A stretch of DNA of 64,000 bases from an uncultured virus (IMG/VR IMGVR_UViG_3300029319_005559) (lineage: Duplodnaviria > Heunggongvirae > Uroviricota > Caudoviricetes), in IMG/VR virus record IMGVR_UViG_3300029319_005559. One strand, written 5' to 3'. The stretch's first letter is position 1, and each line of letters starts with the position of its first letter. The notes beneath the pieces are model-generated. The model was not told where the DNA came from, searched no databases, and was given only the letters and a program-made list of their open reading frames with translations. Positions 2,612-43,387 of this stretch are shown here, one piece after another. The translations under genes were made by a program, and so were the position numbers.

Positions 2612-3259
2612 TTAATTGTTCCCTATGTTGTTATAAAATTCTTTATCTATACAATGTTTATTAAACCATTCAAAGCTACCTGTTTTCTTCATATGAGGAT
2701 GTGGTTTATGTCCACCACCACCGTTTAAACCTATACCATGTTTAATACCTATAGCTAACACTTCATTTGGTGGAAAAAATAATCCACCTTTTTTCTGCTT
2801 ACCTTTTATTTTAAATATATGTATATCAAACCATGGATCCTCGTCTTTTGGATAAGTGTTATTGTAAGGTAACTTTACTAAAGAACAAAAAGCCGAAGCT
2901 CTTCCTGGGTGTCTCATGTATAATTTACCTTTACTAAATATATTATAATAGTAAGTTTCAAACACTCCAAACACGTCTGGTTTTAACTGTGCTTCCCATG
3001 CGCTAGTTAACCACTGTATATACTTAGGATGATACCAATCATCGTCTTCCCACAATAAAGCATATTCATGTCCTTTTTTTGTAGCTTCTTGTATTCCATG
3101 TTTATACCTCTGAGTTAAATCTTTATTATTAGATTTAGGTTCATAGTCTACAACTATAACTTCATCAGGTTGTTTTGTTTGAGATTTAATTATATTCCAA
3201 TATTGATCTTTGAAAACAGGTCTATCTCCTCTAGTTGGTGTTATTAAACAAAAACTCAT
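2612..3259 (-). CDS. GT2/GT-A fold glycosyltransferase
   Basis: LITPTRGDRP, QTKQPDEVIVVD and acidic WEDDDWY motif. Confidence 0.75.
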   Translation of the reverse strand: MSFCLITPTRGDRPVFKDQYWNIIKSQTKQPDEVIVVDYEPKSNNKDLTQRYKHGIQEATKKGHEYALLWEDDDWYHPKYIQWLTSAWEAQLKPDVFGVFETYYYNIFSKGKLYMRHPGRASAFCSLVKLPYNNTYPKDEDPWFDIHIFKIKGKQKKGGLFFPPNEVLAIGIKHGIGLNGGGGHKPHPHMKKTGSFEWFNKHCIDKEFYNNIGNN

Positions 3260-6200
3260 TAATCAATTACTATTATAGGTTTACTAGTAGATGTCTTAGA
3301 AGATGTAGCACTCACACCTCCGTCATCTATTATTATAGATTTATTTTTCTTGTCTCTTTTTTTATCTTTAGGTTTTATCTGCCACTCAGGCCAACCAGCT
3401 AACATAGCTACAGTCTGCCACCAATCTGTGTCTTCAGCAAAGGCTGCTTCTATATTATTAAATTTTTGCAACGCTCTATCAAGTGGTATGTTTGCCGCCG
3501 CTGATACAACTTTAGCAAAAGCTTCATAAGCAGGATTGTCTAAACCAAAACCTCCTTCAAATATTTTTTCTCTACGTTTCTTAGAATCAAACTGCCAAGC
3601 AGCTTGACGTAGCTTAGATATTTTACTACTTACTGGTGGACTAAATTGTAGCAACTTCCACATTGAATCCACATATTCTGGTCTTGATCTTCCTGATCTT
3701 TCGTATATATCTAATAAAAAGTTTTTAACTACAGATACTGCTTGACCTCCAATACCTAAACCTCTTAATGTAGAATCAAGCATTCCATTTAGTGTATCGT
3801 AATACTTTTCATTTTTCTTTTCATCATCTTCTTCATCATCTCCAAAACCTAAAGCAAATACAGCTTGTTGCATTGCGTTAAATATCAGATTCTGTACAAA
3901 ACCATAATATATAATTTTGCTTATATGTTCTCTAGCGTCACCCCTACCATTGACTAAATCTTGAAAAGCTCTTTTCTGTATACGAGCATACTGCATTGGT
4001 GTATTAGCAAATGCTAAAACAATACGACCTAAATCACTAGCTTGTTGTTGTGATATTTTATCTACTCTACTTGACTGTTGATTTTCCTCAGCAAGCTCTG
4101 CCCACTCTCTTAAAGCTATTTCTTCTGCTTGTTTTTTAGTATAAACTTTATTTCCTTCAGCGTCTGTTTCTTTTAATAAGTTGTTAATTCTATTTCTATA
4201 AAACGTAGCACCACCAGAAGCTATAGCAAAGCTATCCATAAACTGAGTAGGTAAATAACCTTTAGAAAGTATATAGTTTATAGCACTCTTAGCTTTATTT
4301 CTACTAGTTTTTGCAGCATCTAATATCTCTGACTCACTGATATTTATTCTTTGTCCATTACGTCTATCACGTAAGTAATCAGAGTTCATTAACATCATAA
4401 AGTCTTTCCAATACTGTGGTTGATTAGCAAATGCTTTACCCGCTTGTATAGGATTATTAAAACTCCAGTTAACATAGTTAATAGCAGATATAGTTTGTAA
4501 CACAGCTGATCTAGTATTGAAGAACATTATAGTACCAATAGAGCCATTTATATAATCCAATACTCTATTGCTTAATCTATTACCACCAGTTACTCTATTC
4601 TTACCAGACTTCATTCTACCTAGCATATTCTCTAAAGCTTCTCTATATTTAGCTCCATATATAGCTTCTAATTTATTTAAGTTTTCTTCACTAAAAATAA
4701 TGTCTGCATTTTCTTGCCATTCTTGCAAATACTTCTGGCGTTTAGTAGTATCAAGTAAATCTATAAGATCTGTAGTTATAGTACCAGCTAACCAGCTTTG
4801 ACCAGGTTTAGGGTATCCATCTCCTTTTGTTATAAGTAAAACTTGTTCCGCAAACAACTTTAAATCAGGATCATTAGCTACAATATCGTTTAGTTCTTTT
4901 AAATCTGTTTTAGACAAACCTGGAATATCATGACCCATAGCTGTGTACATATATACTCTTACAGCTTGCTCATTACTAAATCCAGTAGAATTAGTTTGTC
5001 TTAACTTCTTAGGTACATTTAAAGATTTTTTAAGTGCTTTAAAATCTTGCATTAAGTTTAATCTATCTTGTTGTAAGTTAGCCATACCTTTAGCCCATGG
5101 ATCTAATAAATTATCTTTAATCCATTTCATTTGCTGTTCACCTTTTTTACCTTTACCCAATATTGGATACATTAAACCTACAAAATCTTCAGCTGATGGT
5201 GGAATCCAGAACTTATATTTACCTTTCTTTTCACCTAGTATTTTAGCTTTAGCTTTTGAAAAAGTTTTTTCAGATCCAATTCCAGATTTATCTTCAAGTA
5301 TATTATTAAAGTCTGTACTAAGTTTTTTAGACTTTAACACTTTAGCTTGTTGTACTTTTGATTTAACATCTACTACGTCTAATACATCTTTAACAGCTTT
5401 AACATTTTTCATTGCGTCATCAGCAAAATAAAAATCATTGTAACCTTCAGCTGCTTTATCTACTATCCAATTAGCTTTAGCTTCAGGTGTAGAATTACCA
5501 AGTCCAACTATATTATCTATTTTAAACTCTAATCCTTCTGATTTCAAAAACTCATATATAGCTTGTTGAGATTCTGGAGCACGAGCTGTTAATACGAATA
5601 AATCTTCATTACCTCTAGCTGCTTTAATTTTTTCAGCAACTTCAAATAAAGGTCCACGTTTACCATCTCTAACTATATTAAAGTCACTAAAATCCATTAC
5701 TGCTCCTTCTTCTACTAGTCTTGCTCCATCTTTAGCAAACTCTTCAGCGGTAAGTTGAGCTCTTGTTCCGTCGGGCATTTCATAAAATACCAAACTATTT
5801 GTTTGAGCTAATGTATCATCAAAATCAAATACCCTAATTTTTTTAACAGGCGCGTTAGGATCTCTTGCTATACGTAGTGCTTCATCTAATGTAACAGCTT
5901 TACTTAATAAAGTTTCCATGTCCATTTTCTTGCTATGCAATACAACACCAGATTCACCTACTAAATTATCATTTAAGTTATTAGCTTGCTGTTGTTCGTT
6001 AGCTAAATCAGCAGCATACTTCTTAGCTATTTTAGTTGCTTCGGCTTTACTAATTTTATTAGAACCTATATCATATAAAAGCTTTTGTTGTAAAGATATT
6101 ACATTAGGAAAAGTTAATTGTTTAGTATTAAATACATTAGAACCTATATTATTTAGATCTGATATAGTTTTTGTTTTACCATCTAAGTTTACAAATAACT

Positions 6201-9200
6201 CATTAGGGTTTATACCTACTTGTCCATCAGGTCCTACTTTATTATTTACATCAGGATGAAAATACCTAACTAAAAATGTTTGAGGTGGAGTATCTTTGTC
6301 TATAGCATCTAACCAACTTTCAAAAAATCCATCAGGCATTACACTTTGAAAACCAGCTGCTTTAATCTTGTCGTCAGTATCTTTATTTATAAGTATTTGA
6401 AAATAGTTATCATTAACTAACTCCATAGCTTTATCAAGTGGAACTCCTTTCATCATAGCTTTAAATAAGAATTCTCCTATTTGATTAGCAGGTATAACAT
6501 GCTCTCTTTCTGGTTTTCTTTTGCCTTTCCATTTTGTTTCAAAGCCTACAGGATATCCTGCCATACGCATTATATGACCACTATTAGCTGACGATGTCTG
6601 TATTATTGCTGCAATGTATTTCGCGTTCTCAGGATCAGCCTTATACATTTTATTAAACTGTCTCCACAGTACTTCAAGACCTTCGTTCTTTAACTTCTTA
6701 GCTTCTTTCCATTTCTCGTTGTTAAATAATCTAGTGCCAATGTCCATGATTTTATTCCACCAGTTATTTACATTTTTACCTAACTCTTGTAAGGCTTGTA
6801 ATTCTCTGTTAGTTAAACCTAGATTTTTTAAATCTTGCTTAGCATTTACTTCACTTTGTATTTCACCTCTTCTTTGTGAAGTTAAGAACTGGCTTTTACC
6901 TTTACGATTATTAGCAAAAGTACCAGAGTTAATTAAAAATCCAGGTAAATAATTTGGAAAAGTTTCAAGCATGAAGTTTTCAAACGCTGCTATATCTTCA
7001 GGCACGGTTACCACACCTTTAGAATTAATAGACTTTAGTGGTTGTATACCAACGTCTTTTAATAACTTATCAATACCTTTTTTAGCAAACAAAGTATTAG
7101 GATCTCTTTGTACTTTCTCACTTATCTTTCCAATTTTATCTTTTACTTTAGAAACTCTTTTAACTACTGATGGTGTTACGTCTTTACTTACTACATCTAC
7201 AACACCTTCAGCTAATCCAGTTTTTCTTGTACCACGTAATCCACTACGCTTACCAGTTGTCGGACTAATAGGTGGAGCTAATAAATAGTCTATAAGTTCT
7301 TTAGTATCAAAATCTTTAAACGTATATAAGTTTACTCCTTGTGCAGTATTCTCTACATACACATCGTCTCTTCTCATGGCTGCGTCAATCTCTGCTTGAG
7401 TAGTTAATCTTCTAGGTGGATTAGTAAATATCCTGTTTTCAGGTTTTGTTTGACCTTCCATCCTAACAAACCATTGTATAGGAAAATACTCACGCATTTT
7501 TGGAGCTAACTTCTTAACAGCAAACTCATAGTTTTTACCTGTGCCTAATTTCTTTTTAGTAGCATCTGTCATCTTAGCCCTCTGTACATCAGTCATAAAG
7601 CCTTTATAATCTTTTTCGTTTACTTCAGGCATTTCACTTTCAAACATTTCAAATGCAGAAGTTTCAAACTCATCTTTTAATTGCTCATCAAATATTTCAG
7701 GAAAGTCTCTAGTTATTTTAGATCTAGGTGCAGGTTTAGCTTTTGTTTCAGGACCTGATACATCTTGAGGCTCAGCTGCTATCTCTCTAACTGCTTCATC
7801 ATCTTGTCTTACCTCTTGCTTTTTCTTAGCCGCCTCTTGTGCTAGCTTTTTTCTAGCATCCATAGATGCAAATCTAGTATCAGCAAATATTCTTTCACCA
7901 AATCCTTGTGGACCTACTACAGTTCCATCAGCTCTAGTTTCTTCAGGATTAAAATTAAATAATCTAAACAAAGTGTTTTCAATCATCTGATTACCTTCTT
8001 CTTGACTCACTTGTTTAGATCTTATATAATTATTTATAGCACCACCTGGTTGATTTAAAGCATCTATAATAGGTTTAGCTTTTCTTTCATCTCTAATAAA
8101 CGCATCATATTTTTCTTTAGTATCGATGTCGTCAGGTAATAAATTATTTATAGCTTCAAGAAGTGTAACGTCCTCAATACTCTTAGCTTTAAGTTGTGTT
8201 GCTGGTTCAACTGTTGTATCTACAGTCTCTTCTACTGCTACTTCTTCTGTTACTTGAGGTGCAACTGTTTGATCAGGCTTTGTTTGTGGTAACACAACTT
8301 CTCCTCTAGCAAATCTTTCCTGAGCCTTTGTTAAACCTTTACCTGATTCTAAAGCAAATATATAATCATCAATAAAAGTTTTTACATTTTTTCTATTTAG
8401 CTTAACATCTCTTAGCCCGACGTTTTGTAACATCCTTCTTATAGGCCTAACTAAATCTGATAATGAAGAACCTTTAAATCTATTGTTACCAGATTTTAAT
8501 TGAACATAGTAAGCCATAATTTCCTCAGCTCTATCAGCATCAGTATAACTTTCATCAGTATCGTACTTCTCTTGGATTTGTTTGCTAATTACACCAGCTG
8601 CTTCAGGATCTAGTCTTGCTATCTTTTCTAATAAAGAATTTGCAACTTGCCTTGCTATACCTGCGTTTTCTGGCTTACGCAAACCGTGGTGAGTATATAC
8701 GTGGAAACCCTCGTGTTGTTTAACTCCTTTTGCCGCTTCACTACTCATTAAAACTACACCTCTGCTAGGTATAAACTGACCTTCAGAAGCTTCGTTAAGA
8801 TCTTCAGGAGTAGTATTATAATCTTTAGCTACTTCATCTATATTAGACTCATCGTATACTATAACTTTAAAGTTTTCTGAATTAACTTCACTTAGTTTAT
8901 ACTGGCTTGGATCAAGTGTAAAGTTTTCTTGACCAGGTATTTTACGCATTTCCTCTTCTATCTTAGCTGCTTCTGCGTCTAATGTTTTTTGATCTGCACC
9001 ATCTAACATTAGATTACCTATTTGATCTAATGTAACATCTATGTTAGCGTTCTTTATAGCTTCATTATCTCTAGCTATTTTTTCATTTCTAGCTTTATTT
9101 ATTTGCTCATTAACAAGCCAGGTTTTCATACCACCATTAGCTAAATCTTCTTCAATAACTCTTTCTATAGCTTGCTCTCTGTTCTGTATTTCAATTCTTT

Positions 9201-12200
9201 GCTGTTTAGAAGTAGATTGATCTTCAGACATATTCTTCTTTAAGTTGTTTATTTCTAATTGTAATAAAGCAACTTTTTGTTGGGCATCTGGAGATATAGT
9301 TATTTCACCATTAGCATCGGTAGGTAAATTATTTATTATGCCTTCTACTTCTTCTAAATTTTTTAAACTATTATTATATGCTTCTATAGTTATTTTATTA
9401 TTAGCATATTCTGTTTTTAGTCTTTCCTTGTAAAGCTTATTTAAAGTTTTATTTTTTATTAAGTTAAAAGATGTTGCTAAATAATCTGAGTTTCTTTTAT
9501 TATATCTAGTCTCACTAATACCATTAGCAGTAGCACCTATCAAAGTTAAAGGAAGTGTTGCTATTGAAGTTACTTTAGCTATTTGAGTAACTCTGTCTGT
9601 CATTTCCTTACTAAAGTAATCAGGTGTTTCAAAAAACTTCTTTTGTTTTATATCTCTTAATCCGTTAGTAGCGTCTTGACCTAGTACTTGCCAATACTCT
9701 TGAGCAACTTCAGTAGTAACCTCACCACCAACACCAACTGTTACTTTAAATATACCTTTAGAAATCATATCTTCTATTTCTCTATAAGCAAGATTTCTAA
9801 ACTCTACACCACTTAATCTATTAGCGCCAGGTATTTTACTTAAAATTCTACCAGTTAAACTTTGCGAGACAAGTGACTTTTGAAAAGCTGATTTAAACTC
9901 GCCAAGACCTACCTTTTCTAATATAGCTGTACCTGCTCCTACAAAAGTTTTATAAAATAATTTTTCTTCATCAGATAATATAACATCGTCATAGTTAGGA
10001 TTTAAAACTTTATTACCTTCCTCATCTTTAACTATACTTCCATCTGGATTACGTTTGTACATTAGTTGTTCTTTCATATGCTCAACTTCTGTATCAATAC
10101 CAGTCATTACCTTACCAGACGCTGATAAACCAAAACCAATACCAGGTGCAAATGGTAATGCAGCTGTTCCTAATATGAAGTCACTAGCCATATCTATTAT
10201 TACACCAGCTCCTTGTCCCCACTCGCTTTCTTCAAATCTAGCTGCATATGTAGGATCTATATTATGTTTTCTATACTTTTGATTAAAGTTTATATTAGCA
10301 GCGTTTCTGGTTCGTTCTATTATGTCATTCCACTCTTCTTCATTATCCATTTTAAGAACGTTCTTATCAAAAGCTTTCATTAATTCATTGCCATAAATTT
10401 TTAATCCAACCATTGAATCCTTAAACCCTTCAAAAAATCTATTATGAACCCAGTCAGTAAATGAACCTCTACCAGCGTTGTTAACTGCCCACTCTTCATA
10501 TGTAATTATAGAAGCATCTATAGCAGCTTCTGCTTTATCAACTGATTGATTTAATCTAATATTGGTAGATACAAGATTATTATACTTATTAGTTATATCA
10601 GTATATTGGTCAGCATAAGAATTAAATTCTTCTAAAAATGTTTTACCACCTCTGTTCTCGTATTTTTTATAAGCTTTTTTATAATCCTTTTCTTTGTCTT
10701 TAAGATACTCTTCATTATCTTTTACAATTTGTTGATTTCTAATTATATCTTTTCTAAGTTGATTAGATAATCTAACTATAGGTTGTATCCTATTTAAAGT
10801 TTGTTGATCTTCAATAACACCATCTCCATCAGGATCAGCTTTTTCTATAGCTACTTGTAAGTCCTCATATTGAGTATATACTTTATTTATTTTATCTATA
10901 GCTTGGTCAGTTTCTTTTCTAACCTTTTGATAATCTTCATCACCTTGTAAAGTTTGAAAAGCTTCATTTAAATTTTTAATTATCGGAGAATTCTTTTTAA
11001 AGTAAGATTGTATCTCTTTTATCTCTCCTTCTAACTGACCTTGTATTTTTGTGTTTTGATTTATTTGTATAACACTTTCATCTGCTTCTTTTATTTGTGC
11101 TTCTACAAAAGCAGGTGTAGGTGATTTAACTACATTTAAAGCATCGGTATTAAAATAAGGTATACCTTGATTACCATCTGCATCTGCTTGTGCTTTGCCT
11201 TGCATCCAAGTAAAAGCTTCTTTTAAATTATCAGTATATTTATTTAATTGCCATCCATCAGTGTCTTGTGTCCAGTTATTCCACGTATTATCTATATAAG
11301 TTTTTTCGTCTCTAAATAAACCTATTGGCCCTCTTTTAATAAAACCTCTTAAACCTACATTTCTATCTTCTGTATAATCTATAGGATTTCTATTTGTAAC
11401 TGGTAGCAATACAAAATCAGAACCTTCTTTTGGCTTAGCTTGTCCACTTATCTTATCTAAAACGTTTATATCTTTTATCTTACCATCTTTGTCTGTTAAT
11501 TCTTCAAACTCTGGTCTATAATAAACTCTTATGTTGTTAGCAAAGGAAGTGGCATCACTTCCTCTCATAGCTTGATTTTCACTTTCTAAATCTTCATCAT
11601 ACATGAAGTAAAAACCAAACGGGCCGAATGTTTCGTTTAATAACTCAGCTGATTCATAAGGTCTTTCAGCTTCTGAAAATGTACCTTTAGCTCCTTCATA
11701 TCTATATCCTGTAGGCATATTTACAAAGTCAAATAAAGCTTGAGCTGGAGCATTAGCAAAGTTACTAGTTATTTCTAAAGGAGCATTGTTAAAGTCATCT
11801 ATCTTTAATAAATTATCATATTTATAACTACCATCATTAGTCTCTTGATCAAGTATGTTAAAGTTATAGTTAGCTAACTCTGCTGTGATCTTATCTTGAT
11901 ATAAATCTGTAGCTTTTCTTTTTTCATTTTCAACTTCTTCTGGATCAACTAAAGTTTGAAATGGTTGAACATAGTCAATACCAAATCCTGTTTCAGCTGA
12001 TGCTAGTTTAGTTTGTTGATCAAACTCACTAAGTAAAACAGTAGGTCTATAGCCTTGTAGCTTACCTTTTTTATCATACACTTCTTTCGCTACTACTAGT
12101 TGTCTTTTAACAGTTAGTTCTGCTTCTGGATCTATATCTTCTTCTGTTAATAATATTTCTTTTTGCAGATCTTTGCAAGCTTCTAAAGATTGATCTTGCA

Positions 12201-13002
12201 TTTTGTTAATATCATTAAGTAACTGTGTTTGATTTTCAGTAGTTAAATTTTGATCTGATAATTTATTAACGTTGTCAGCTATATTATTATCTATATCGCT
12301 AACTTGTTTTTCTAATTTTTTATAAGCATCTGATTGCTCTCGTCTCTGTTGAGATTCATTTAAATTTTTTCTTTGTTCTTGGTCTAAGCCAGCTATATAA
12401 TCTGAATTTTTACCCGGTGTAGATCTAGGTGTGTATATATTTTTAGTAGCAGTACCTATAACTCTTACTCTTCCTGTTGCTGGAGAATTAAAAAACACTT
12501 CTCCGCTTTCATCAACTTCAATACCTTCTATATTATTTGATAATTCTTTTATACCAGCTTCATCATAATCACTTATACTTGTAGCTACATCAAACTCATT
12601 ATAAGCCCTTAAGTTATTAAAGTTTTTACTTTTAGTTAACCAGTCTTCGGCTGTAGTTTCACTAATTTTTTTCTTTCTATTATTTCTAAATCTCCACTTC
12701 TTATCATCACTTTCTGTTACTTCAATAAGATCTTCCTCTTGCTCAGCCTTCGGTGACTCCAATGAAATATCTTCCAAATCTAAATCCCCATTCTCGTCTC
12801 CTGCCGCAGTTGGGGTAGTCTCGACAGGCGGATTCTTTTCCACGGTAACAATATCTTCTATCTTTTCTTCTTCAGGTCCACCGTCTTCTACAGTAGTTAT
12901 ATTGTTAACACTTAAGTAATTATCTAATGTAGTATTACTAGCTTTTACAGCTTCATCTATTTGATCTTGAGTATACTCGTTGTCGTTCCAGATATATTTC
13001 AT
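3259..13002 (-). CDS. Giant (3247 aa) putative internal/ejected virion polyprotein with HExxH and HAD-like domains
   Basis: Last large gene of the structural block; HEGFH motif; VFDFDDTL...VLTAR...FADD HAD motifs. Confidence 0.7.
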   Translation of the reverse strand: MKYIWNDNEYTQDQIDEAVKASNTTLDNYLSVNNITTVEDGGPEEEKIEDIVTVEKNPPVETTPTAAGDENGDLDLEDISLESPKAEQEEDLIEVTESDDKKWRFRNNRKKKISETTAEDWLTKSKNFNNLRAYNEFDVATSISDYDEAGIKELSNNIEGIEVDESGEVFFNSPATGRVRVIGTATKNIYTPRSTPGKNSDYIAGLDQEQRKNLNESQQRREQSDAYKKLEKQVSDIDNNIADNVNKLSDQNLTTENQTQLLNDINKMQDQSLEACKDLQKEILLTEEDIDPEAELTVKRQLVVAKEVYDKKGKLQGYRPTVLLSEFDQQTKLASAETGFGIDYVQPFQTLVDPEEVENEKRKATDLYQDKITAELANYNFNILDQETNDGSYKYDNLLKIDDFNNAPLEITSNFANAPAQALFDFVNMPTGYRYEGAKGTFSEAERPYESAELLNETFGPFGFYFMYDEDLESENQAMRGSDATSFANNIRVYYRPEFEELTDKDGKIKDINVLDKISGQAKPKEGSDFVLLPVTNRNPIDYTEDRNVGLRGFIKRGPIGLFRDEKTYIDNTWNNWTQDTDGWQLNKYTDNLKEAFTWMQGKAQADADGNQGIPYFNTDALNVVKSPTPAFVEAQIKEADESVIQINQNTKIQGQLEGEIKEIQSYFKKNSPIIKNLNEAFQTLQGDEDYQKVRKETDQAIDKINKVYTQYEDLQVAIEKADPDGDGVIEDQQTLNRIQPIVRLSNQLRKDIIRNQQIVKDNEEYLKDKEKDYKKAYKKYENRGGKTFLEEFNSYADQYTDITNKYNNLVSTNIRLNQSVDKAEAAIDASIITYEEWAVNNAGRGSFTDWVHNRFFEGFKDSMVGLKIYGNELMKAFDKNVLKMDNEEEWNDIIERTRNAANINFNQKYRKHNIDPTYAARFEESEWGQGAGVIIDMASDFILGTAALPFAPGIGFGLSASGKVMTGIDTEVEHMKEQLMYKRNPDGSIVKDEEGNKVLNPNYDDVILSDEEKLFYKTFVGAGTAILEKVGLGEFKSAFQKSLVSQSLTGRILSKIPGANRLSGVEFRNLAYREIEDMISKGIFKVTVGVGGEVTTEVAQEYWQVLGQDATNGLRDIKQKKFFETPDYFSKEMTDRVTQIAKVTSIATLPLTLIGATANGISETRYNKRNSDYLATSFNLIKNKTLNKLYKERLKTEYANNKITIEAYNNSLKNLEEVEGIINNLPTDANGEITISPDAQQKVALLQLEINNLKKNMSEDQSTSKQQRIEIQNREQAIERVIEEDLANGGMKTWLVNEQINKARNEKIARDNEAIKNANIDVTLDQIGNLMLDGADQKTLDAEAAKIEEEMRKIPGQENFTLDPSQYKLSEVNSENFKVIVYDESNIDEVAKDYNTTPEDLNEASEGQFIPSRGVVLMSSEAAKGVKQHEGFHVYTHHGLRKPENAGIARQVANSLLEKIARLDPEAAGVISKQIQEKYDTDESYTDADRAEEIMAYYVQLKSGNNRFKGSSLSDLVRPIRRMLQNVGLRDVKLNRKNVKTFIDDYIFALESGKGLTKAQERFARGEVVLPQTKPDQTVAPQVTEEVAVEETVDTTVEPATQLKAKSIEDVTLLEAINNLLPDDIDTKEKYDAFIRDERKAKPIIDALNQPGGAINNYIRSKQVSQEEGNQMIENTLFRLFNFNPEETRADGTVVGPQGFGERIFADTRFASMDARKKLAQEAAKKKQEVRQDDEAVREIAAEPQDVSGPETKAKPAPRSKITRDFPEIFDEQLKDEFETSAFEMFESEMPEVNEKDYKGFMTDVQRAKMTDATKKKLGTGKNYEFAVKKLAPKMREYFPIQWFVRMEGQTKPENRIFTNPPRRLTTQAEIDAAMRRDDVYVENTAQGVNLYTFKDFDTKELIDYLLAPPISPTTGKRSGLRGTRKTGLAEGVVDVVSKDVTPSVVKRVSKVKDKIGKISEKVQRDPNTLFAKKGIDKLLKDVGIQPLKSINSKGVVTVPEDIAAFENFMLETFPNYLPGFLINSGTFANNRKGKSQFLTSQRRGEIQSEVNAKQDLKNLGLTNRELQALQELGKNVNNWWNKIMDIGTRLFNNEKWKEAKKLKNEGLEVLWRQFNKMYKADPENAKYIAAIIQTSSANSGHIMRMAGYPVGFETKWKGKRKPEREHVIPANQIGEFLFKAMMKGVPLDKAMELVNDNYFQILINKDTDDKIKAAGFQSVMPDGFFESWLDAIDKDTPPQTFLVRYFHPDVNNKVGPDGQVGINPNELFVNLDGKTKTISDLNNIGSNVFNTKQLTFPNVISLQQKLLYDIGSNKISKAEATKIAKKYAADLANEQQQANNLNDNLVGESGVVLHSKKMDMETLLSKAVTLDEALRIARDPNAPVKKIRVFDFDDTLAQTNSLVFYEMPDGTRAQLTAEEFAKDGARLVEEGAVMDFSDFNIVRDGKRGPLFEVAEKIKAARGNEDLFVLTARAPESQQAIYEFLKSEGLEFKIDNIVGLGNSTPEAKANWIVDKAAEGYNDFYFADDAMKNVKAVKDVLDVVDVKSKVQQAKVLKSKKLSTDFNNILEDKSGIGSEKTFSKAKAKILGEKKGKYKFWIPPSAEDFVGLMYPILGKGKKGEQQMKWIKDNLLDPWAKGMANLQQDRLNLMQDFKALKKSLNVPKKLRQTNSTGFSNEQAVRVYMYTAMGHDIPGLSKTDLKELNDIVANDPDLKLFAEQVLLITKGDGYPKPGQSWLAGTITTDLIDLLDTTKRQKYLQEWQENADIIFSEENLNKLEAIYGAKYREALENMLGRMKSGKNRVTGGNRLSNRVLDYINGSIGTIMFFNTRSAVLQTISAINYVNWSFNNPIQAGKAFANQPQYWKDFMMLMNSDYLRDRRNGQRINISESEILDAAKTSRNKAKSAINYILSKGYLPTQFMDSFAIASGGATFYRNRINNLLKETDAEGNKVYTKKQAEEIALREWAELAEENQQSSRVDKISQQQASDLGRIVLAFANTPMQYARIQKRAFQDLVNGRGDAREHISKIIYYGFVQNLIFNAMQQAVFALGFGDDEEDDEKKNEKYYDTLNGMLDSTLRGLGIGGQAVSVVKNFLLDIYERSGRSRPEYVDSMWKLLQFSPPVSSKISKLRQAAWQFDSKKRREKIFEGGFGLDNPAYEAFAKVVSAAANIPLDRALQKFNNIEAAFAEDTDWWQTVAMLAGWPEWQIKPKDKKRDKKNKSIIIDDGGVSATSSKTSTSKPIIVID

Positions 13003-13008
13003 ATTTAA

Positions 13009-14886
13009 TTAAGCTTGATTTATTATAGGTAATGCTGGAGCAGTGTTGTCCATTGATGTTTCGTTTTCTTCGTCTGCTTTTATAGAGTTTATTACTTTAC
13101 GCATTGTAGATTTTGTAATTCCTTGATACAAACCTATCTGTTGTAAAAAATTGCTAGGTTGTTCTAAAGCATCACGCCTGGTATATACTTCACTTCCGTC
13201 CCTGTTTTTAACTCTAATATATATACCATCTTTAACAGCGTCAACTTTTTCACCTTGAGCATTAACAACTGTTTGACCACCACTAAGTTCTTTTCCTGTT
13301 TTAAATTTAACACTTGATTGGCCTACACTAGCCATGTAGTTTAACATGTCTACGGCGCCTTTGTAGCCATCCTTTTTTAGTTTATCAAAATCAGTATAAA
13401 CATCTGTAGCTGTAATGGAATATTCTCCAAGTCCTTGATCTTTAGATCCACTAAAGTACGTAGACATACCTTTGTTTATACTAAAAGCATTTTCATTTTT
13501 ATATTGACTAACTACAGCGTCTTCAGTTTCTTTTTTCTCTTTGTTACTAGAATATGTAATACCAGGATCTTCTGCTATAAACTGAGCTTCTAAATCTTTA
13601 TATAATTCATCCGCTGCTTTATCATTTTGTTCTGGCGTTCCAGTATATTGCCAAGTAGTTCTATTTTTTGGATCAGGTCCACCTACCATTTGCCAATTGT
13701 TCTGTGCGTTTATTCTACTATTTTCATCATACAAACCATTAGTTGCTATTTGATCTTGAACAAATACTTCAAGTCTTGCTTTTCTGGCAGAATAATCTAC
13801 AAATTTTTGTTTAACACTAGTCGTTCCACCATCACCTGTAGTTGTTGAAGTATTGTAAGATACAGCGCCTTTTACTTTAGCAGCGCCTGAAGCTTTGTAT
13901 AAATCTGATTTATAAGTTTCATATTTCTTACCATCAGTTAATGCCAATAATTCTCCGTTTTCTAATAATAATCTTTCTAACTCTTTGTTATTTAAAGTAT
14001 ACGTTTGTTTACCATTTTTTGTAGGATAAGTATACTCAACACTAAAATGTCCTTCATCGTCATATTTAGATTTAAACCTACCTTTATTAATGCCTAAAGT
14101 ATAATCTCTTACGAAACTAGAAAATGCTGGAAAATCAGGATCATTTACAAAATATAATGGAACTCCTTTTTGTCCTTTGTTAACAGCTTTATATTGACCG
14201 TCAACATTAAGACCACCAACGTTACCTTGACCAGGTTTTAAAATATTTGTAGCAGCATTAAGTCTACTCATCATTTCTATATATTCACGTTTTTCAGTAG
14301 CTATTTTTTTTAACATTACATTTCTTTCTTCGCCAGTTAAGTCGCTTAACGCAGTAAAGTCATTGGCTATTGCTTCTACACCTTGCTCTTCAAGAGGTTT
14401 ACCAAATTCATCTTGAGCATGATAATAAATTTTAGGATCTAAGCCATCCTCCTCTAGTGCTTCATTTAATTCATCTTCTGATAAATTAAGACCAGAATAT
14501 TTTTCTACAGCTATTTTATACTTAGCTAAATCTTCGTTAGGTATTTTTACACCTTCTCCAACTTCTGCATCTGCTTCAGCTATTCCTATTGTTATATTCT
14601 TTGGATCGTAATCTGTAATGCCAAACTTTTTAGGAACTTTTTCATCTATGGTTTCTTCAAATTCAATTTGAGCTTTAGTACTTTCTTCTTTTCTTTCAGC
14701 TTGCTCTTTCTTTTGTTTTTCTAATTCTGCTTGTTGTTTTTTAACTTTGTCAAGCTCTTCTTTAGCCTGTAATTTACGCTGTGCTTCAACACTTTTTATA
14801 GCGCTATTGACAGACTGCGTTAATGTAGCTGTTGACTTTGAAAGACTTTCGTCTAATATTCTACTTGGTTGACTGTATGTTCCCAT
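13009..14886 (-). CDS. Putative internal virion protein (625 aa)
   Basis: Lies between the tail nozzle genes and the giant protein; N-terminal coiled coil. Confidence 0.5.
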   Translation of the reverse strand: MGTYSQPSRILDESLSKSTATLTQSVNSAIKSVEAQRKLQAKEELDKVKKQQAELEKQKKEQAERKEESTKAQIEFEETIDEKVPKKFGITDYDPKNITIGIAEADAEVGEGVKIPNEDLAKYKIAVEKYSGLNLSEDELNEALEEDGLDPKIYYHAQDEFGKPLEEQGVEAIANDFTALSDLTGEERNVMLKKIATEKREYIEMMSRLNAATNILKPGQGNVGGLNVDGQYKAVNKGQKGVPLYFVNDPDFPAFSSFVRDYTLGINKGRFKSKYDDEGHFSVEYTYPTKNGKQTYTLNNKELERLLLENGELLALTDGKKYETYKSDLYKASGAAKVKGAVSYNTSTTTGDGGTTSVKQKFVDYSARKARLEVFVQDQIATNGLYDENSRINAQNNWQMVGGPDPKNRTTWQYTGTPEQNDKAADELYKDLEAQFIAEDPGITYSSNKEKKETEDAVVSQYKNENAFSINKGMSTYFSGSKDQGLGEYSITATDVYTDFDKLKKDGYKGAVDMLNYMASVGQSSVKFKTGKELSGGQTVVNAQGEKVDAVKDGIYIRVKNRDGSEVYTRRDALEQPSNFLQQIGLYQGITKSTMRKVINSIKADEENETSMDNTAPALPIINQA

Positions 14887-41586: not shown

Positions 41587-41843
41587 AATACTATAACTAC
41601 ATCTTGTTCTTTAATAACTTGATATTGCTGTTTATCTATCTCTATTTTAGTACCAGCTACTTTGTCATAGTATATTTCATTACCGGCTTTTACGCCGTTA
41701 ACATCGGTACCTACAGATTTTACTTTAGCAATTCTATATCTAATATCTTCTCGTTGCTTTTCAGTTAAGATTAAACCACCTTTGGTTTTTACATTTTCTT
41801 CTTTAACTGGATCAATAACTATATACTTACCTACTGCTTTCAT
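41583..41843 (-). CDS. groES: Co-chaperonin GroES
   Basis: KTKGGLIL mobile loop, VKSVG, VKAG and IKEQDVV motifs. Confidence 0.85.
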   Translation of the reverse strand: MKAVGKYIVIDPVKEENVKTKGGLILTEKQREDIRYRIAKVKSVGTDVNGVKAGNEIYYDKVAGTKIEIDKQQYQVIKEQDVVIVL

Positions 41844-43387
41844 GCTCTAATATTATTGATTACACAATCTGTACTCATAATAGTAGTAGCTACTGAAGCC
41901 GCATTTTGTAAGGCACTTTTAGTTACTAGCAAAGGATCTATTATTCCGGTCTTAACCATATCTACCGTTTTTCCTGTAACCACGTCTAAACCTCTGCCTT
42001 GTGTTATTGGAGTTTCATATTCATCAACGCCTGCGTTCTTTAATATTATTTCATATGGCTTTTGTATAGCACAATATAAAACTTCTTCACCTATGTTTTT
42101 TGGTTGTAGCTTTTGCGAAGCATTTAACAAAGCTATACCACCTCCAGGAACTATACCTTCCTTTATTGCGGCTTTAGTAGCGCATATAGCATCTTCAACT
42201 CTATCTCTTTTTTCTTTCAACTCTACTTCAGAGTTAGCACCTACTTTTACAATAGCAACTTTAGCTTTTAGTTTTGCTAATCTGCTTTCTAATCTTGTTA
42301 TTACGGCGGGGCTTTTTGTACTAGCTATTTGCTCTTCAAGTCTACTTATTATTTCTTTTACTTCTTCATTGTTGGTTAAGTCGACTTTTAATATAGTATT
42401 TTCTTTATTAGTTATAGATCTTTCACATGAACCTAAATAGTCGATGCTGATTAAATCCATATCATCTCCGAGATCTTCGTTAATCAGTGTTGCACCTGTT
42501 ACAGCGCACAAGTCTTCTAATGTTTCTTTTCGATTAACTCCATAGCTCGGTGCATCAATGATGTTGACTTTAATATTGCCTTTCATTTTGTTCATGGCAA
42601 GCGCGTTCATTACTTGTGGATCAACATCTGCTATTATTAATAAGCTTTTCTTTTCTTTTATAACATGTTCTAATACTGTTTGTATTTTACGTATATTAGA
42701 CACTTCTGATTCTACTATAAGAACTAATGGTTGTTCTAACTCTGCAGCACCGTTCTGCTTATTAGTTATAAAATGAGGATTTTTAATAGCTTGGTTATAT
42801 TCAACACCTTCCACTAATTCAACCTCCGTTCTAGGTTGATCATTAGTCTCCATCATTACTATACCTGTTTCATCTACTAATTTAAAAGCTTGTGCTATTA
42901 TTTGCCCTAACTCTTTATCATTGTTAGCGGATATAGTAGCTACTTGATCTATTTTTTTACCACTAATTTTCTTACTATTCTTTTGTAAGTATTTAATGAC
43001 ATTAGTTACAGCTGTATTAATTCCATCTTTTATACTTCTTAAATCATCTAGCTGATCATGCTTGCTATACTCATCTAGTATTGCGTGTGCTAATACTGTA
43101 GCTGTAGTAGTTCCATCACCTGCATCTTTAACAGTTCTTTGTGCTGCCTCTTTTATAAGTGTAGCACCAATATTTTCTAATGGTTTACGTAACGTTATGC
43201 TATTTGCTACTGTTACTCCGTCTTTGGTTATAATTGGTTTACCGTGTTTATCTTCTAATATAACACATTTTCCGCTGGCGCCTAACGTAGATGATACTGC
43301 GTTAGTTAGTTTATTTACACCAGCTAGTATCTGGCTTCTAGCATCATCGCCAAAAGCCAGATCTTTTACTAGCATTAGTTCTTCCAT
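41840..43387 (-). CDS. groEL: Chaperonin GroEL
   Basis: ITKDGVTVA, AGDGTTTATVLA, KVGANSEVELKEKRDRVEDA, GIVPGGG and GIIDP motifs. Confidence 0.95.
   Translation of the reverse strand: MEELMLVKDLAFGDDARSQILAGVNKLTNAVSSTLGASGKCVILEDKHGKPIITKDGVTVANSITLRKPLENIGATLIKEAAQRTVKDAGDGTTTATVLAHAILDEYSKHDQLDDLRSIKDGINTAVTNVIKYLQKNSKKISGKKIDQVATISANNDKELGQIIAQAFKLVDETGIVMMETNDQPRTEVELVEGVEYNQAIKNPHFITNKQNGAAELEQPLVLIVESEVSNIRKIQTVLEHVIKEKKSLLIIADVDPQVMNALAMNKMKGNIKVNIIDAPSYGVNRKETLEDLCAVTGATLINEDLGDDMDLISIDYLGSCERSITNKENTILKVDLTNNEEVKEIISRLEEQIASTKSPAVITRLESRLAKLKAKVAIVKVGANSEVELKEKRDRVEDAICATKAAIKEGIVPGGGIALLNASQKLQPKNIGEEVLYCAIQKPYEIILKNAGVDEYETPITQGRGLDVVTGKTVDMVKTGIIDPLLVTKSALQNAASVATTIMSTDCVINNIRA

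Follow-up and report, generated by a model that had tools for sequence, protein, structure and literature searches.

We describe what is very probably a -1 programmed ribosomal frameshift (PRF) cassette near the 5' end of a giant gene in an uncultured tailed phage. The gene lies on the minus strand of a stretch of 64,000 nucleotides (nt) from IMG/VR record IMGVR_UViG_3300029319_005559, which represents most of a phage genome. We refer to this stretch as the window, and all positions are given in its coordinates. The cassette consists of a slippery heptamer, G_GAA_AAG, at codons 55-56 of a 3247-codon gene, followed by an H-type pseudoknot. A first-pass annotation, made from the letters of the window, had proposed that a -1 frameshift at this site yields a short isoform with the same N-terminus as the giant protein. 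Comparison with relatives supports this proposal, since the peptide encoded in the -1 frame is conserved, its reading frame has no start codon of its own and the stems of the pseudoknot covary. The support comes from the homologues; the window alone could not have provided it.

In the mechanism that we propose, ribosomes would initiate at the ATG at 13002 and would meet the pseudoknot 6 nt downstream when GAA (E55) is in the P site and AAG (K56) is in the A site. A fraction of them would slip back by one base, with the lysine transfer RNA (tRNA-Lys) moving from AAG to AAA and tRNA-Glu partly re-pairing with GGA. The slipped ribosomes would translate 30 more -1 codons before terminating at the TGA at 12745-12743. 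The resulting product of 86 amino acids (aa) would comprise the first 56 residues of the giant protein and a -1 tail, in which a short Cys-containing stretch is followed by WGFRFGRYFIGVT. Ribosomes that do not slip would make the 3247-aa protein. One messenger RNA (mRNA) would give rise to two proteins with the same N-terminal domain, in a ratio set by the RNA signal.

Anatomy of the cassette

The slip site, the 6-nt spacer and both stems were found in the sequence exactly where the first-pass annotation had placed them. The features are listed below in the direction of translation, with the open reading frame (ORF) of the giant gene first and the basis of each assignment in brackets.

3259..13002, minus strand: giant gene, 0 frame, 3247 codons, at the end of the structural module (ORF list and translation)
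12835..13002, minus strand: codons 1-56, common to the giant protein and the predicted short product; small N-terminal domain and acidic linker (sequence)
12872..12874, minus strand: -1 TGA that bounds the shift window on its upstream side; the -1 ORF runs from gene nt 131
12862..12868, minus strand: A_GAA_AAG, codons 46-47, another in-frame A_AAG of the shift window, separated from stem 1 by 33 nt
12835..12841, minus strand: putative slip site G_GAA_AAG, codons 55-56, with K56 in the A site (sequence)
12829..12834, minus strand: 6-nt spacer AATCCG (sequence)
12822..12828, minus strand: 5' arm of pseudoknot stem 1, CCUGUCG (sequence, scanner, covariation)
12811..12815, minus strand: 5' arm of pseudoknot stem 2, CCCCA, inside the loop of stem 1 (sequence, scanner)
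12800..12806, minus strand: 3' arm of pseudoknot stem 1, CGGCAGG (sequence, scanner, covariation)
12786..12790, minus strand: 3' arm of pseudoknot stem 2, UGGGG, overlapping the W-G codons of the -1 motif
12746..12838, minus strand: -1 coding segment, 31 codons from the re-read AAA; predicted C-terminal tail of the 86-aa product
12752..12790, minus strand: conserved -1 motif WGFRFGRYFIGVT (family pattern [YW]G-h-x-h-G-[RKS]-[WYF]-F-h-G-h-[TS])
12743..12745, minus strand: TGA closing the -1 frame (sequence)

Codons 54-57 of the giant gene read GTG GAA AAG AAT, and those from codon 58 on read CCG CCT GTC GAG. Stem 1 has 7 base pairs (bp), one of them G-U. The heptamer is not a canonical X_XXY_YYZ site, as the A_AAG tetranucleotide alone is fully slippery. 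By itself the heptamer means nothing, because the gene carries 28 in-frame N_NNA_AAG and 25 canonical heptamers. The -1 frame of the window has no ATG, GTG or TTG, and the reading of 30 residues followed by TGA, for a product of 86 aa, is as originally claimed. The sequence holds a slip site that can re-pair, a structure 6 nt downstream and a conserved -1 ORF without a start.

The cassette was also said to form a GC-rich patch in an AT-rich gene, and third codon positions bear this out. The GC content is 0.53 in 12780-12839 and about 0.3 around it (0.20-0.40), and the GC content at third positions (GC3) of codons 57-73 is 0.47 compared with 0.17 gene-wide, with rare codons such as CCG, GTC, ACC, GCG and GGG.

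We searched for pseudoknots with an H-type pseudoknot scanner (spacer 4-9 nt, stem 1 of 5-10 bp, stem 2 of 4-7 bp), scored with Turner stacking energies via ViennaRNA. The pseudoknot of the cassette scores -17.2 and ranks first of the 3216 in-frame positions in the gene, the next scoring -13.6. An equally strong pseudoknot occurred in 0.03% and 0.13% of 3000 local dinucleotide shuffles. After allowing for the look-elsewhere effect over 64 kb, these window-only statistics are suggestive, not decisive. An Rfam scan returned just a sub-threshold match to a CRISPR repeat on the opposite strand.

Conservation of the -1 peptide in relatives

Near relatives of the window are useless for synonymous-site analysis because they are almost identical to it. 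The N-terminal 500 aa of the giant protein had no match in IMG/VR or genome contigs and only two in metagenome contigs, both identical at the DNA level, and the 90% cluster of the giant protein has 3 near-identical members (99.97% identity). We collected more distant relatives using the C-terminal 713 aa as a query. This retrieved 9 IMG/VR contigs with giant ORFs (42-72% identical to this part of the protein), and an alignment-based scan found at least 562 relatives among 600 matched stretches, of which 80 were used. Five loci that were too short or had no ATG were excluded, and 83 giant genes were usable. Two further scans were seeded with database proteins bearing the tail (described below), one with a 3-sequence alignment and the other with a single protein. 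The 77 loci with the tail reduce to 62 unique sequences, the window's own included.

The 0-frame N-termini of the relatives do not align with that of the window. When we translated the -1 frame after candidate sites, the peptide of the window recurred in four relatives. Differences between the window and the relative L008 in this peptide are mostly at third positions of -1 codons. A regular expression for the motif matched 23 of the 83 giant genes, always in frame 2 and never in frames 0 or 1. Over 1.37 Mb in six frames it gave 25 matches, 22 of them at the cassette position. A hidden Markov model (HMM) of the -1 peptide matched 28 of the 83 genes (E 1.5e-10 to 2e-18; next match E 0.15), every time in the -1 frame and 8-275 nt past the ATG. 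The further scans showed the tail at 30 of 30 and 15 of 30 loci. It was never in frame, being encoded each time in the -1 frame of a long ORF, and the 15 loci of the second scan without it do have the N-terminal domain. Over 152 sources the HMM gave 77 matches, one per locus, in stop-to-stop fragments of 26-63 aa. Across all six frames of the 64-kb window it matched once, from 12871 downward (E 4.8e-12).

The pattern of variation points to selection on this frame. In a block of 13 codons (24 unique sequences), entropy at the three positions of -1 codons is 0.92, 0.60 and 1.35. Since third positions of -1 codons vary most, the -1 frame is under purifying selection. The most variable site is the second position of the 0 frame, which makes selection on the 0 frame alone impossible and is typical of -1 coding. 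The 0-frame peptide across the block is a poorly conserved, acidic, Ser/Gly-rich linker.

Overlapping genes are common in phages, and a clearly selected -1 peptide could belong to an overlapping gene that is initiated independently, with no recoding. Such a gene would need a start codon, and the -1 ORFs have no ATG in any of the 62 unique loci (62/62) and no ATG, GTG or TTG upstream of the conserved part in 61 of them. Moreover, relatives often have a -1 stop just a few codons 5' of the slip site, and -1 conservation begins at the slip lysine. We regard independent initiation as extremely unlikely.

The organization expected of a frameshift holds throughout the family. At all 62 loci the 0 frame continues without a stop from its ATG past the cassette, and its ORF reaches at least 1000 aa or the edge of the locus. 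The -1 stop follows 3-9 residues past the motif (TGA at 31 loci, TAA at 16 and TAG at 15). The predicted trans-frame products are 59-128 aa long, with a median of 75.

The slip site across the family

Conservation of the heptamer and of the stems had been named beforehand as checks on the proposal. An in-frame N_NNA_AAG stands at the head of the -1 ORF in 54 of the 62 unique loci, and the exact G_GAA_AAG of the window in 8. The heptamers are distributed as follows.

G_GGA_AAG: 27 of 62 loci
A_GTA_AAG: 12 of 62 loci
G_GAA_AAG (the window's own): 8 of 62 loci
A_GCA_AAG: 2 of 62 loci
Single-case N_NNA_AAG heptamers: 5 of 62 loci

The remaining 8 loci have N_GAT_TTT-type sites (6) or G_GGA_AAA (2). 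A pseudoknot was scored at 55 loci, 33 of which have a 6-nt spacer, and the family range is 5-8 nt.

The shift window of the giant gene contains two in-frame A_AAG sites, so we considered whether ribosomes slip at the upstream A_GAA_AAG (12868-12862, codons 46-47), or at both. The length of the product would be the same and the junction would lie nine residues earlier. This site is inside the shift window, past the -1 TGA at 12874-12872, and -1 reading from it starts K-D-R-R, like the K-D-K-R of many relatives. However, it is 33 nt from stem 1, far from the family spacer of mostly 6 nt. In a MAFFT alignment, K56 rather than K47 aligns with the slip lysine of the relatives, and the C-x5-C-G spacing then fits. 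A strain from run X9, 99% identical over 12400-13300, adds to this: a C>A change on the plus strand at 12862 (K47N, AAG to AAT) destroys the upstream A_GAA_AAG, and the cassette at 12743-12841 is identical (one contig, n=1). The upstream heptamer is probably not the functional slip site, and we consider slippage there unlikely. On the strength of the 6-nt spacer, the family alignment and the strain variant, we take 12835..12841 as the probable functional site of the window.

The pseudoknot across the family

The scanner was applied to 27 distinct genes of 1778-3676 codons. The pseudoknot of the cassette is the strongest of the whole gene in 19 of them. Scores of -10 or better were obtained at 23 of 27 true sites compared with 5 of 482 control in-frame A_AAG (Mann-Whitney p 4e-35), and in 19 of 25 unique cassettes the pseudoknot is stronger than in 95% of 300 dinucleotide shuffles. 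The typical build is a 6-nt spacer, a stem 1 of 7-10 bp and a stem 2 of 5-7 bp that joins the loop to a segment 9-15 nt downstream.

We assessed covariation of both stems on an unguided MAFFT alignment of 25 sequences (A2). Pairing was found in 79.7% of cells, compared with 66.9% in shuffled alignments (0/500 as high) and 30-47% when the arms were slid. Twelve of the 16 pairs change on both sides, with 54 compensatory cells versus 23 (0/500); example pairs are AU 9 / CG 7 / GC 6 and CG 10 / UA 9. For stem 1 we used a second set of 35 further distinct sequences in an alignment fitted to the structure (A6), in which 88.7% of cells are paired versus 71.7% (0/500) and each of the 8 pairs of helix 1 shows changes in both partners. 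The requested conservation of the stems is therefore seen as covariation, for both stems on the first alignment and for stem 1 on the second set.

A covariance model of the sequence and stem 1 was run on 63 sources, mostly outside the set from which it was built. It gave 44 matches, one per locus and all at the cassette, and no match in the 15 loci without the tail; the alignment of these matches is the one used above for the second test of stem 1. It missed three loci that bear the cassette (L092, L142 and L149).

The sequences of stem 2 are diverse. The loop arms of relatives (GGAUGC, GGAUCC, CGGGUGC and others) each pair with a matching downstream arm. Stem 2 of the window, CCCCA/UGGGG, is entirely unlike the common GGAUGC/GCAUCC or GGAUCC/GGAUCC in sequence, and its 3' arm falls on the same W/Y-G codons as in the relatives.

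Evidence against a frameshift

Several observations weigh against the frameshift reading. The P-site codon re-pairs only partially (GAA to GGA), whereas A-site re-pairing (AAG to AAA) is perfect. A host tRNA-Lys(CUU), if present, would make A_AAG less slippery, and the phage brings no tRNA-Lys of its own, as no tRNA genes were found in the 64-kb window. The minimum free energy (MFE) fold of the 99 nt is not exceptional (z -1.01; 35 of 200 shuffles were as stable) and leaves stem 1 unused; under synonymous resampling, z ranges from -1.1 to -2.0. MFE folding cannot score pseudoknots and was dropped as a test. With the scanner, 1.8% of 3000 synonymous resamplings contained an equally strong pseudoknot (p 0.018). 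In the family, 4 of 27 genes receive a scanner score of zero at the site chosen for them and on inspection have mismatched stems or a longer loop 3, and 10 of the 62 unique loci score weaker than -10. The position of the 3' arm of stem 2 varies by subgroup, so that stem 2 is less uniform in its placement than stem 1 and is countable on only part of the data, alignment A2 but not A6. The slip site in the 62-locus census was picked by the best pseudoknot, which favours the model. Finally, 55 of the 83 homologues, nearly all close relatives of the window among them, are without the cassette, so it is dispensable.

Chance would account for the cassette if an A_AAG happened to lie beside a GC-rich Pro/Thr/Ala/Gly linker with codons that pair fortuitously. 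The abundance of in-frame N_NNA_AAG in the gene and the unexceptional MFE fit this explanation, as does a bias towards pairing in the amino acid sequence itself (11% of its synonymous resamples score -13 or better). Near the N-terminus, P/T/A-rich linkers are also present in relatives that lack the cassette. It is contradicted by -1 conservation and selection, by covariation and by the specificity of the pseudoknot in the family, and the GC3 of the patch is raised by its rare codons. Redundancy of contigs is an unlikely artefact, given 62 unique sequences and 24 unique motif blocks. The probability that the cassette is due to chance is, in our view, next to negligible.

Distribution of the cassette

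We mapped the cassette onto a FastTree phylogeny of the C-terminal 700 aa (82 rows). Its distribution requires at least 7 changes, most parsimoniously 11. The cassette is found in 12 of 13 rows of one deep clade and in 2 of 35 rows of the clade of the window. This patchiness suggests repeated loss of the cassette or exchange of an N-terminal module. If the N-terminal module with the cassette was exchanged between giant genes, this would explain the patchy distribution on a C-terminal tree.

Among cassette-bearing relatives, the N-terminal segments form a loose alignment that corresponds to a small domain. In one subgroup (L050-L053, L061 and L067-L070) this small 0-frame domain is tandemly duplicated upstream of the slip site, with two repeats of the type K-L-Y-x-A-L-...-Y-T-K-S-F-x-D-F.

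The short product and its database analogues

We searched the tail profile against 1.84 billion representative sequences and found 23 proteins (P0004-P0026) at E 0.001 or better. These proteins are 58-127 aa long and carry the N-terminal domain and the tail in one continuous ORF. The motif is at the C-terminus in 22 of them and near the N-terminus in P0015. Their N-termini resemble the N-terminal domains of the giant proteins, and most of the junctions lie exactly at the slip site, with two a few codons beyond. The continuous-ORF form was found at no IMG/VR locus. The 23 proteins could be natural indel variants, homopolymer or sequencing errors, or complementary DNA (cDNA). They would show what the trans-frame product looks like.

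Junctions at the A-run of a continuous ORF are also what transcriptional slippage would produce, in which RNA polymerase, and not the ribosome, adds a base. However, the A-runs here are just 3-4 bases (A_GTA_AAG, G_GAA_AAG), compared with the runs of 9 A or T given for bacterial transcriptional slippage in the review PMC5009743. In addition, a covarying pseudoknot at a fixed distance of 6 nt is a hallmark of ribosomal slippage. Run X18, a marine metatranscriptome, contains a 172-nt contig that matches 12737-12902 with no difference and no indel, a weak argument because contigs drop rare variants and DNA carry-over is possible. We judge transcriptional slippage to be very unlikely and infer that the slippage is ribosomal.

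Few clues to the function of the short product came from databases. Pfam searches with 25 tails gave nothing below E 0.01, a tblastn search of P0007 against 50,697 phage records gave no match, and the ESM Atlas yielded no usable lead (best score 0.77). An AlphaFold model of the full-length analogue P0024, built from an alignment with 20 others, has a predicted local distance difference test (pLDDT) score of 57.7, too low for a fold search. It hints at a small beta-alpha-alpha N-terminal domain and a beta-hairpin tail.

A partner or assembly role would be the most economical, by analogy with the logic of copA/CopZ or of lambda G/GT, because the N-terminal domain is common to both proteins and the RNA would fix their ratio. 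The short protein may act with the giant protein via this domain, for example as an assembly or docking partner. The first-pass annotation had suggested that the frameshift keeps down the number of copies of the giant protein. Such a limit is a necessary side-effect of any frameshifting, and as a purpose it is a proposal; it would not be the whole story, because the -1 tail is under selection, which points to the short protein itself as what matters.

More tentatively, and with considerable doubt about the whole, the cassette may define a protein family made almost only via recoding. Its members would be proteins of 59-128 aa with the N-terminal domain, a Cys-rich stretch and an aromatic-glycine beta-hairpin tail, serving in marine phages of the Flavobacteriia type as dedicated partners of the giant protein (a chaperone, a docking factor or a membrane or portal anchor). 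The pseudoknot would fix the ratio, and the N-terminal module would be exchanged between giant genes.

Comparison with known frameshift systems

According to the review PMC5009743, Z_ZZN and A_AAG sites such as the G_CGA_AAG of IS1222 are established bacterial -1 sites. The same source covers the A_CGA_AAG of Bacillus cdd; like the site described here, both are N_NNA_AAG heptamers at which the A-site tRNA-Lys alone fully re-pairs. The IS1222 shift makes a transposase fusion and the cdd shift an incidental extension, and their stimulators and products are unrelated to the cassette of the window.

Escherichia coli copA has an early -1 shift at a slippery sequence with an mRNA pseudoknot, which releases an N-terminal domain (PMC7558416, PMC6182138 and PMC9548414). 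The small N-terminal protein, CopA(Z), is described there as working with the full-length one. The cassette of the window fits this architecture, with an early pseudoknot-stimulated PRF that would yield a stand-alone N-terminal domain, and the analogy is one of mechanism with no sequence relationship. Translation of copA terminates almost at once after the shift, unlike in the window, where 30 codons of the -1 frame encode a conserved tail of their own. The window gene is part of a phage structural module, whereas copA encodes a transporter.

The tau/gamma system of E. coli dnaX likewise combines a lysine-codon slip site ending in AAG with a long and a short product that have a common N-terminus, and its shift leads to early termination (PMC5009743). 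In contrast to dnaX, the window has a slip site at codon 56 of 3247 at which the A-site tetranucleotide alone slips fully, and a pseudoknot as the stimulator.

The G/GT system of phage lambda resembles the present case as a conserved -1 PRF in the morphogenesis module of a double-stranded DNA phage, with a fixed ratio of two proteins that have a common N-terminal part (PMC5009743). In lambda, two small overlapping ORFs lie upstream of the tape-measure gene and the shift lengthens the small protein, whereas the shift in the window would truncate the giant protein itself. The lambda slip site is G_GGA_AAG, the same as the commonest heptamer of the family described here (27 of 62 loci). We found no match to tail assembly chaperone families in Pfam or PHROG, and the cassette does not qualify as a G/GT pair of the lambda type.

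According to the PRFect paper, well-supported cases of -1 PRF in tailed phages are mostly tail assembly chaperones, with few capsid genes. Pseudoknot-stimulated -1 PRF on bacterial ribosomes is represented by few cases (PMC5009743). A literature search, subscription journals excepted, found no description of this cassette. The conserved, covariation-backed pseudoknot cassette would add a different gene class from tail chaperones, and it occurs in an abundant group of uncultured marine phages whose nearest cultured relatives infect Flavobacteriia. Gene callers miss the short protein because it has no ORF of its own, and the giant gene should carry a two-product annotation. Variation of the heptamer and stems over 62 loci also forms a natural mutational series on how pseudoknots cooperate with sites that are slippery in the A site only.

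Genomic context of the giant gene

Upstream of the giant gene, its minus-strand neighbours encode members of several PHROG "virion structural" families as well as the terminase and the portal protein. No Pfam family matches the giant protein. Among 50,697 phage records, we found no match to the giant-gene region (blastn and tblastn) or to the C-terminus of the giant protein, and neither the C-terminal domain nor the -1 tail was detected in these cultured phages. The nearest cultured relatives of TerL (45% identity) are from Flavobacterium, Cellulophaga, Tenacibaculum and Maribacter phages, and a host in the Flavobacteriia is likely on the basis of these relatives. They include phages named vB_FspP, a form of name that we take to denote podoviruses.

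We considered an alternative genetic code in which TGA is a sense codon. The stops of 14 minus-strand genes of the structural module (1510-31107) are TAA in 13 cases, TAG in one and TGA in none. The alternative code was rejected and TGA was taken as a stop, because the 14 ORFs are intact under table 11 and half of the -1 stops of relatives are TAA or TAG.

The giant gene contains further features of note. A canonical in-frame A_AAA_AAG lies at 7846-7852 on the minus strand (codons 1718-1719) and an in-frame T_TTA_AAG at 4858-4864 on the minus strand (codons 2714-2715). Both look incidental, because the scanner found no pseudoknot after either. The giant protein has an HExxH-like motif, HEGFH, at about residue 1430, and residues 2383-2553 have a weak match to PHROG 415 (polynucleotide kinase / HAD-like, E 1.4e-4). 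Elsewhere in the window, the phage encodes a GroEL-like chaperonin on the minus strand at 41840-43387 (PHROG 5725, E 1e-139).

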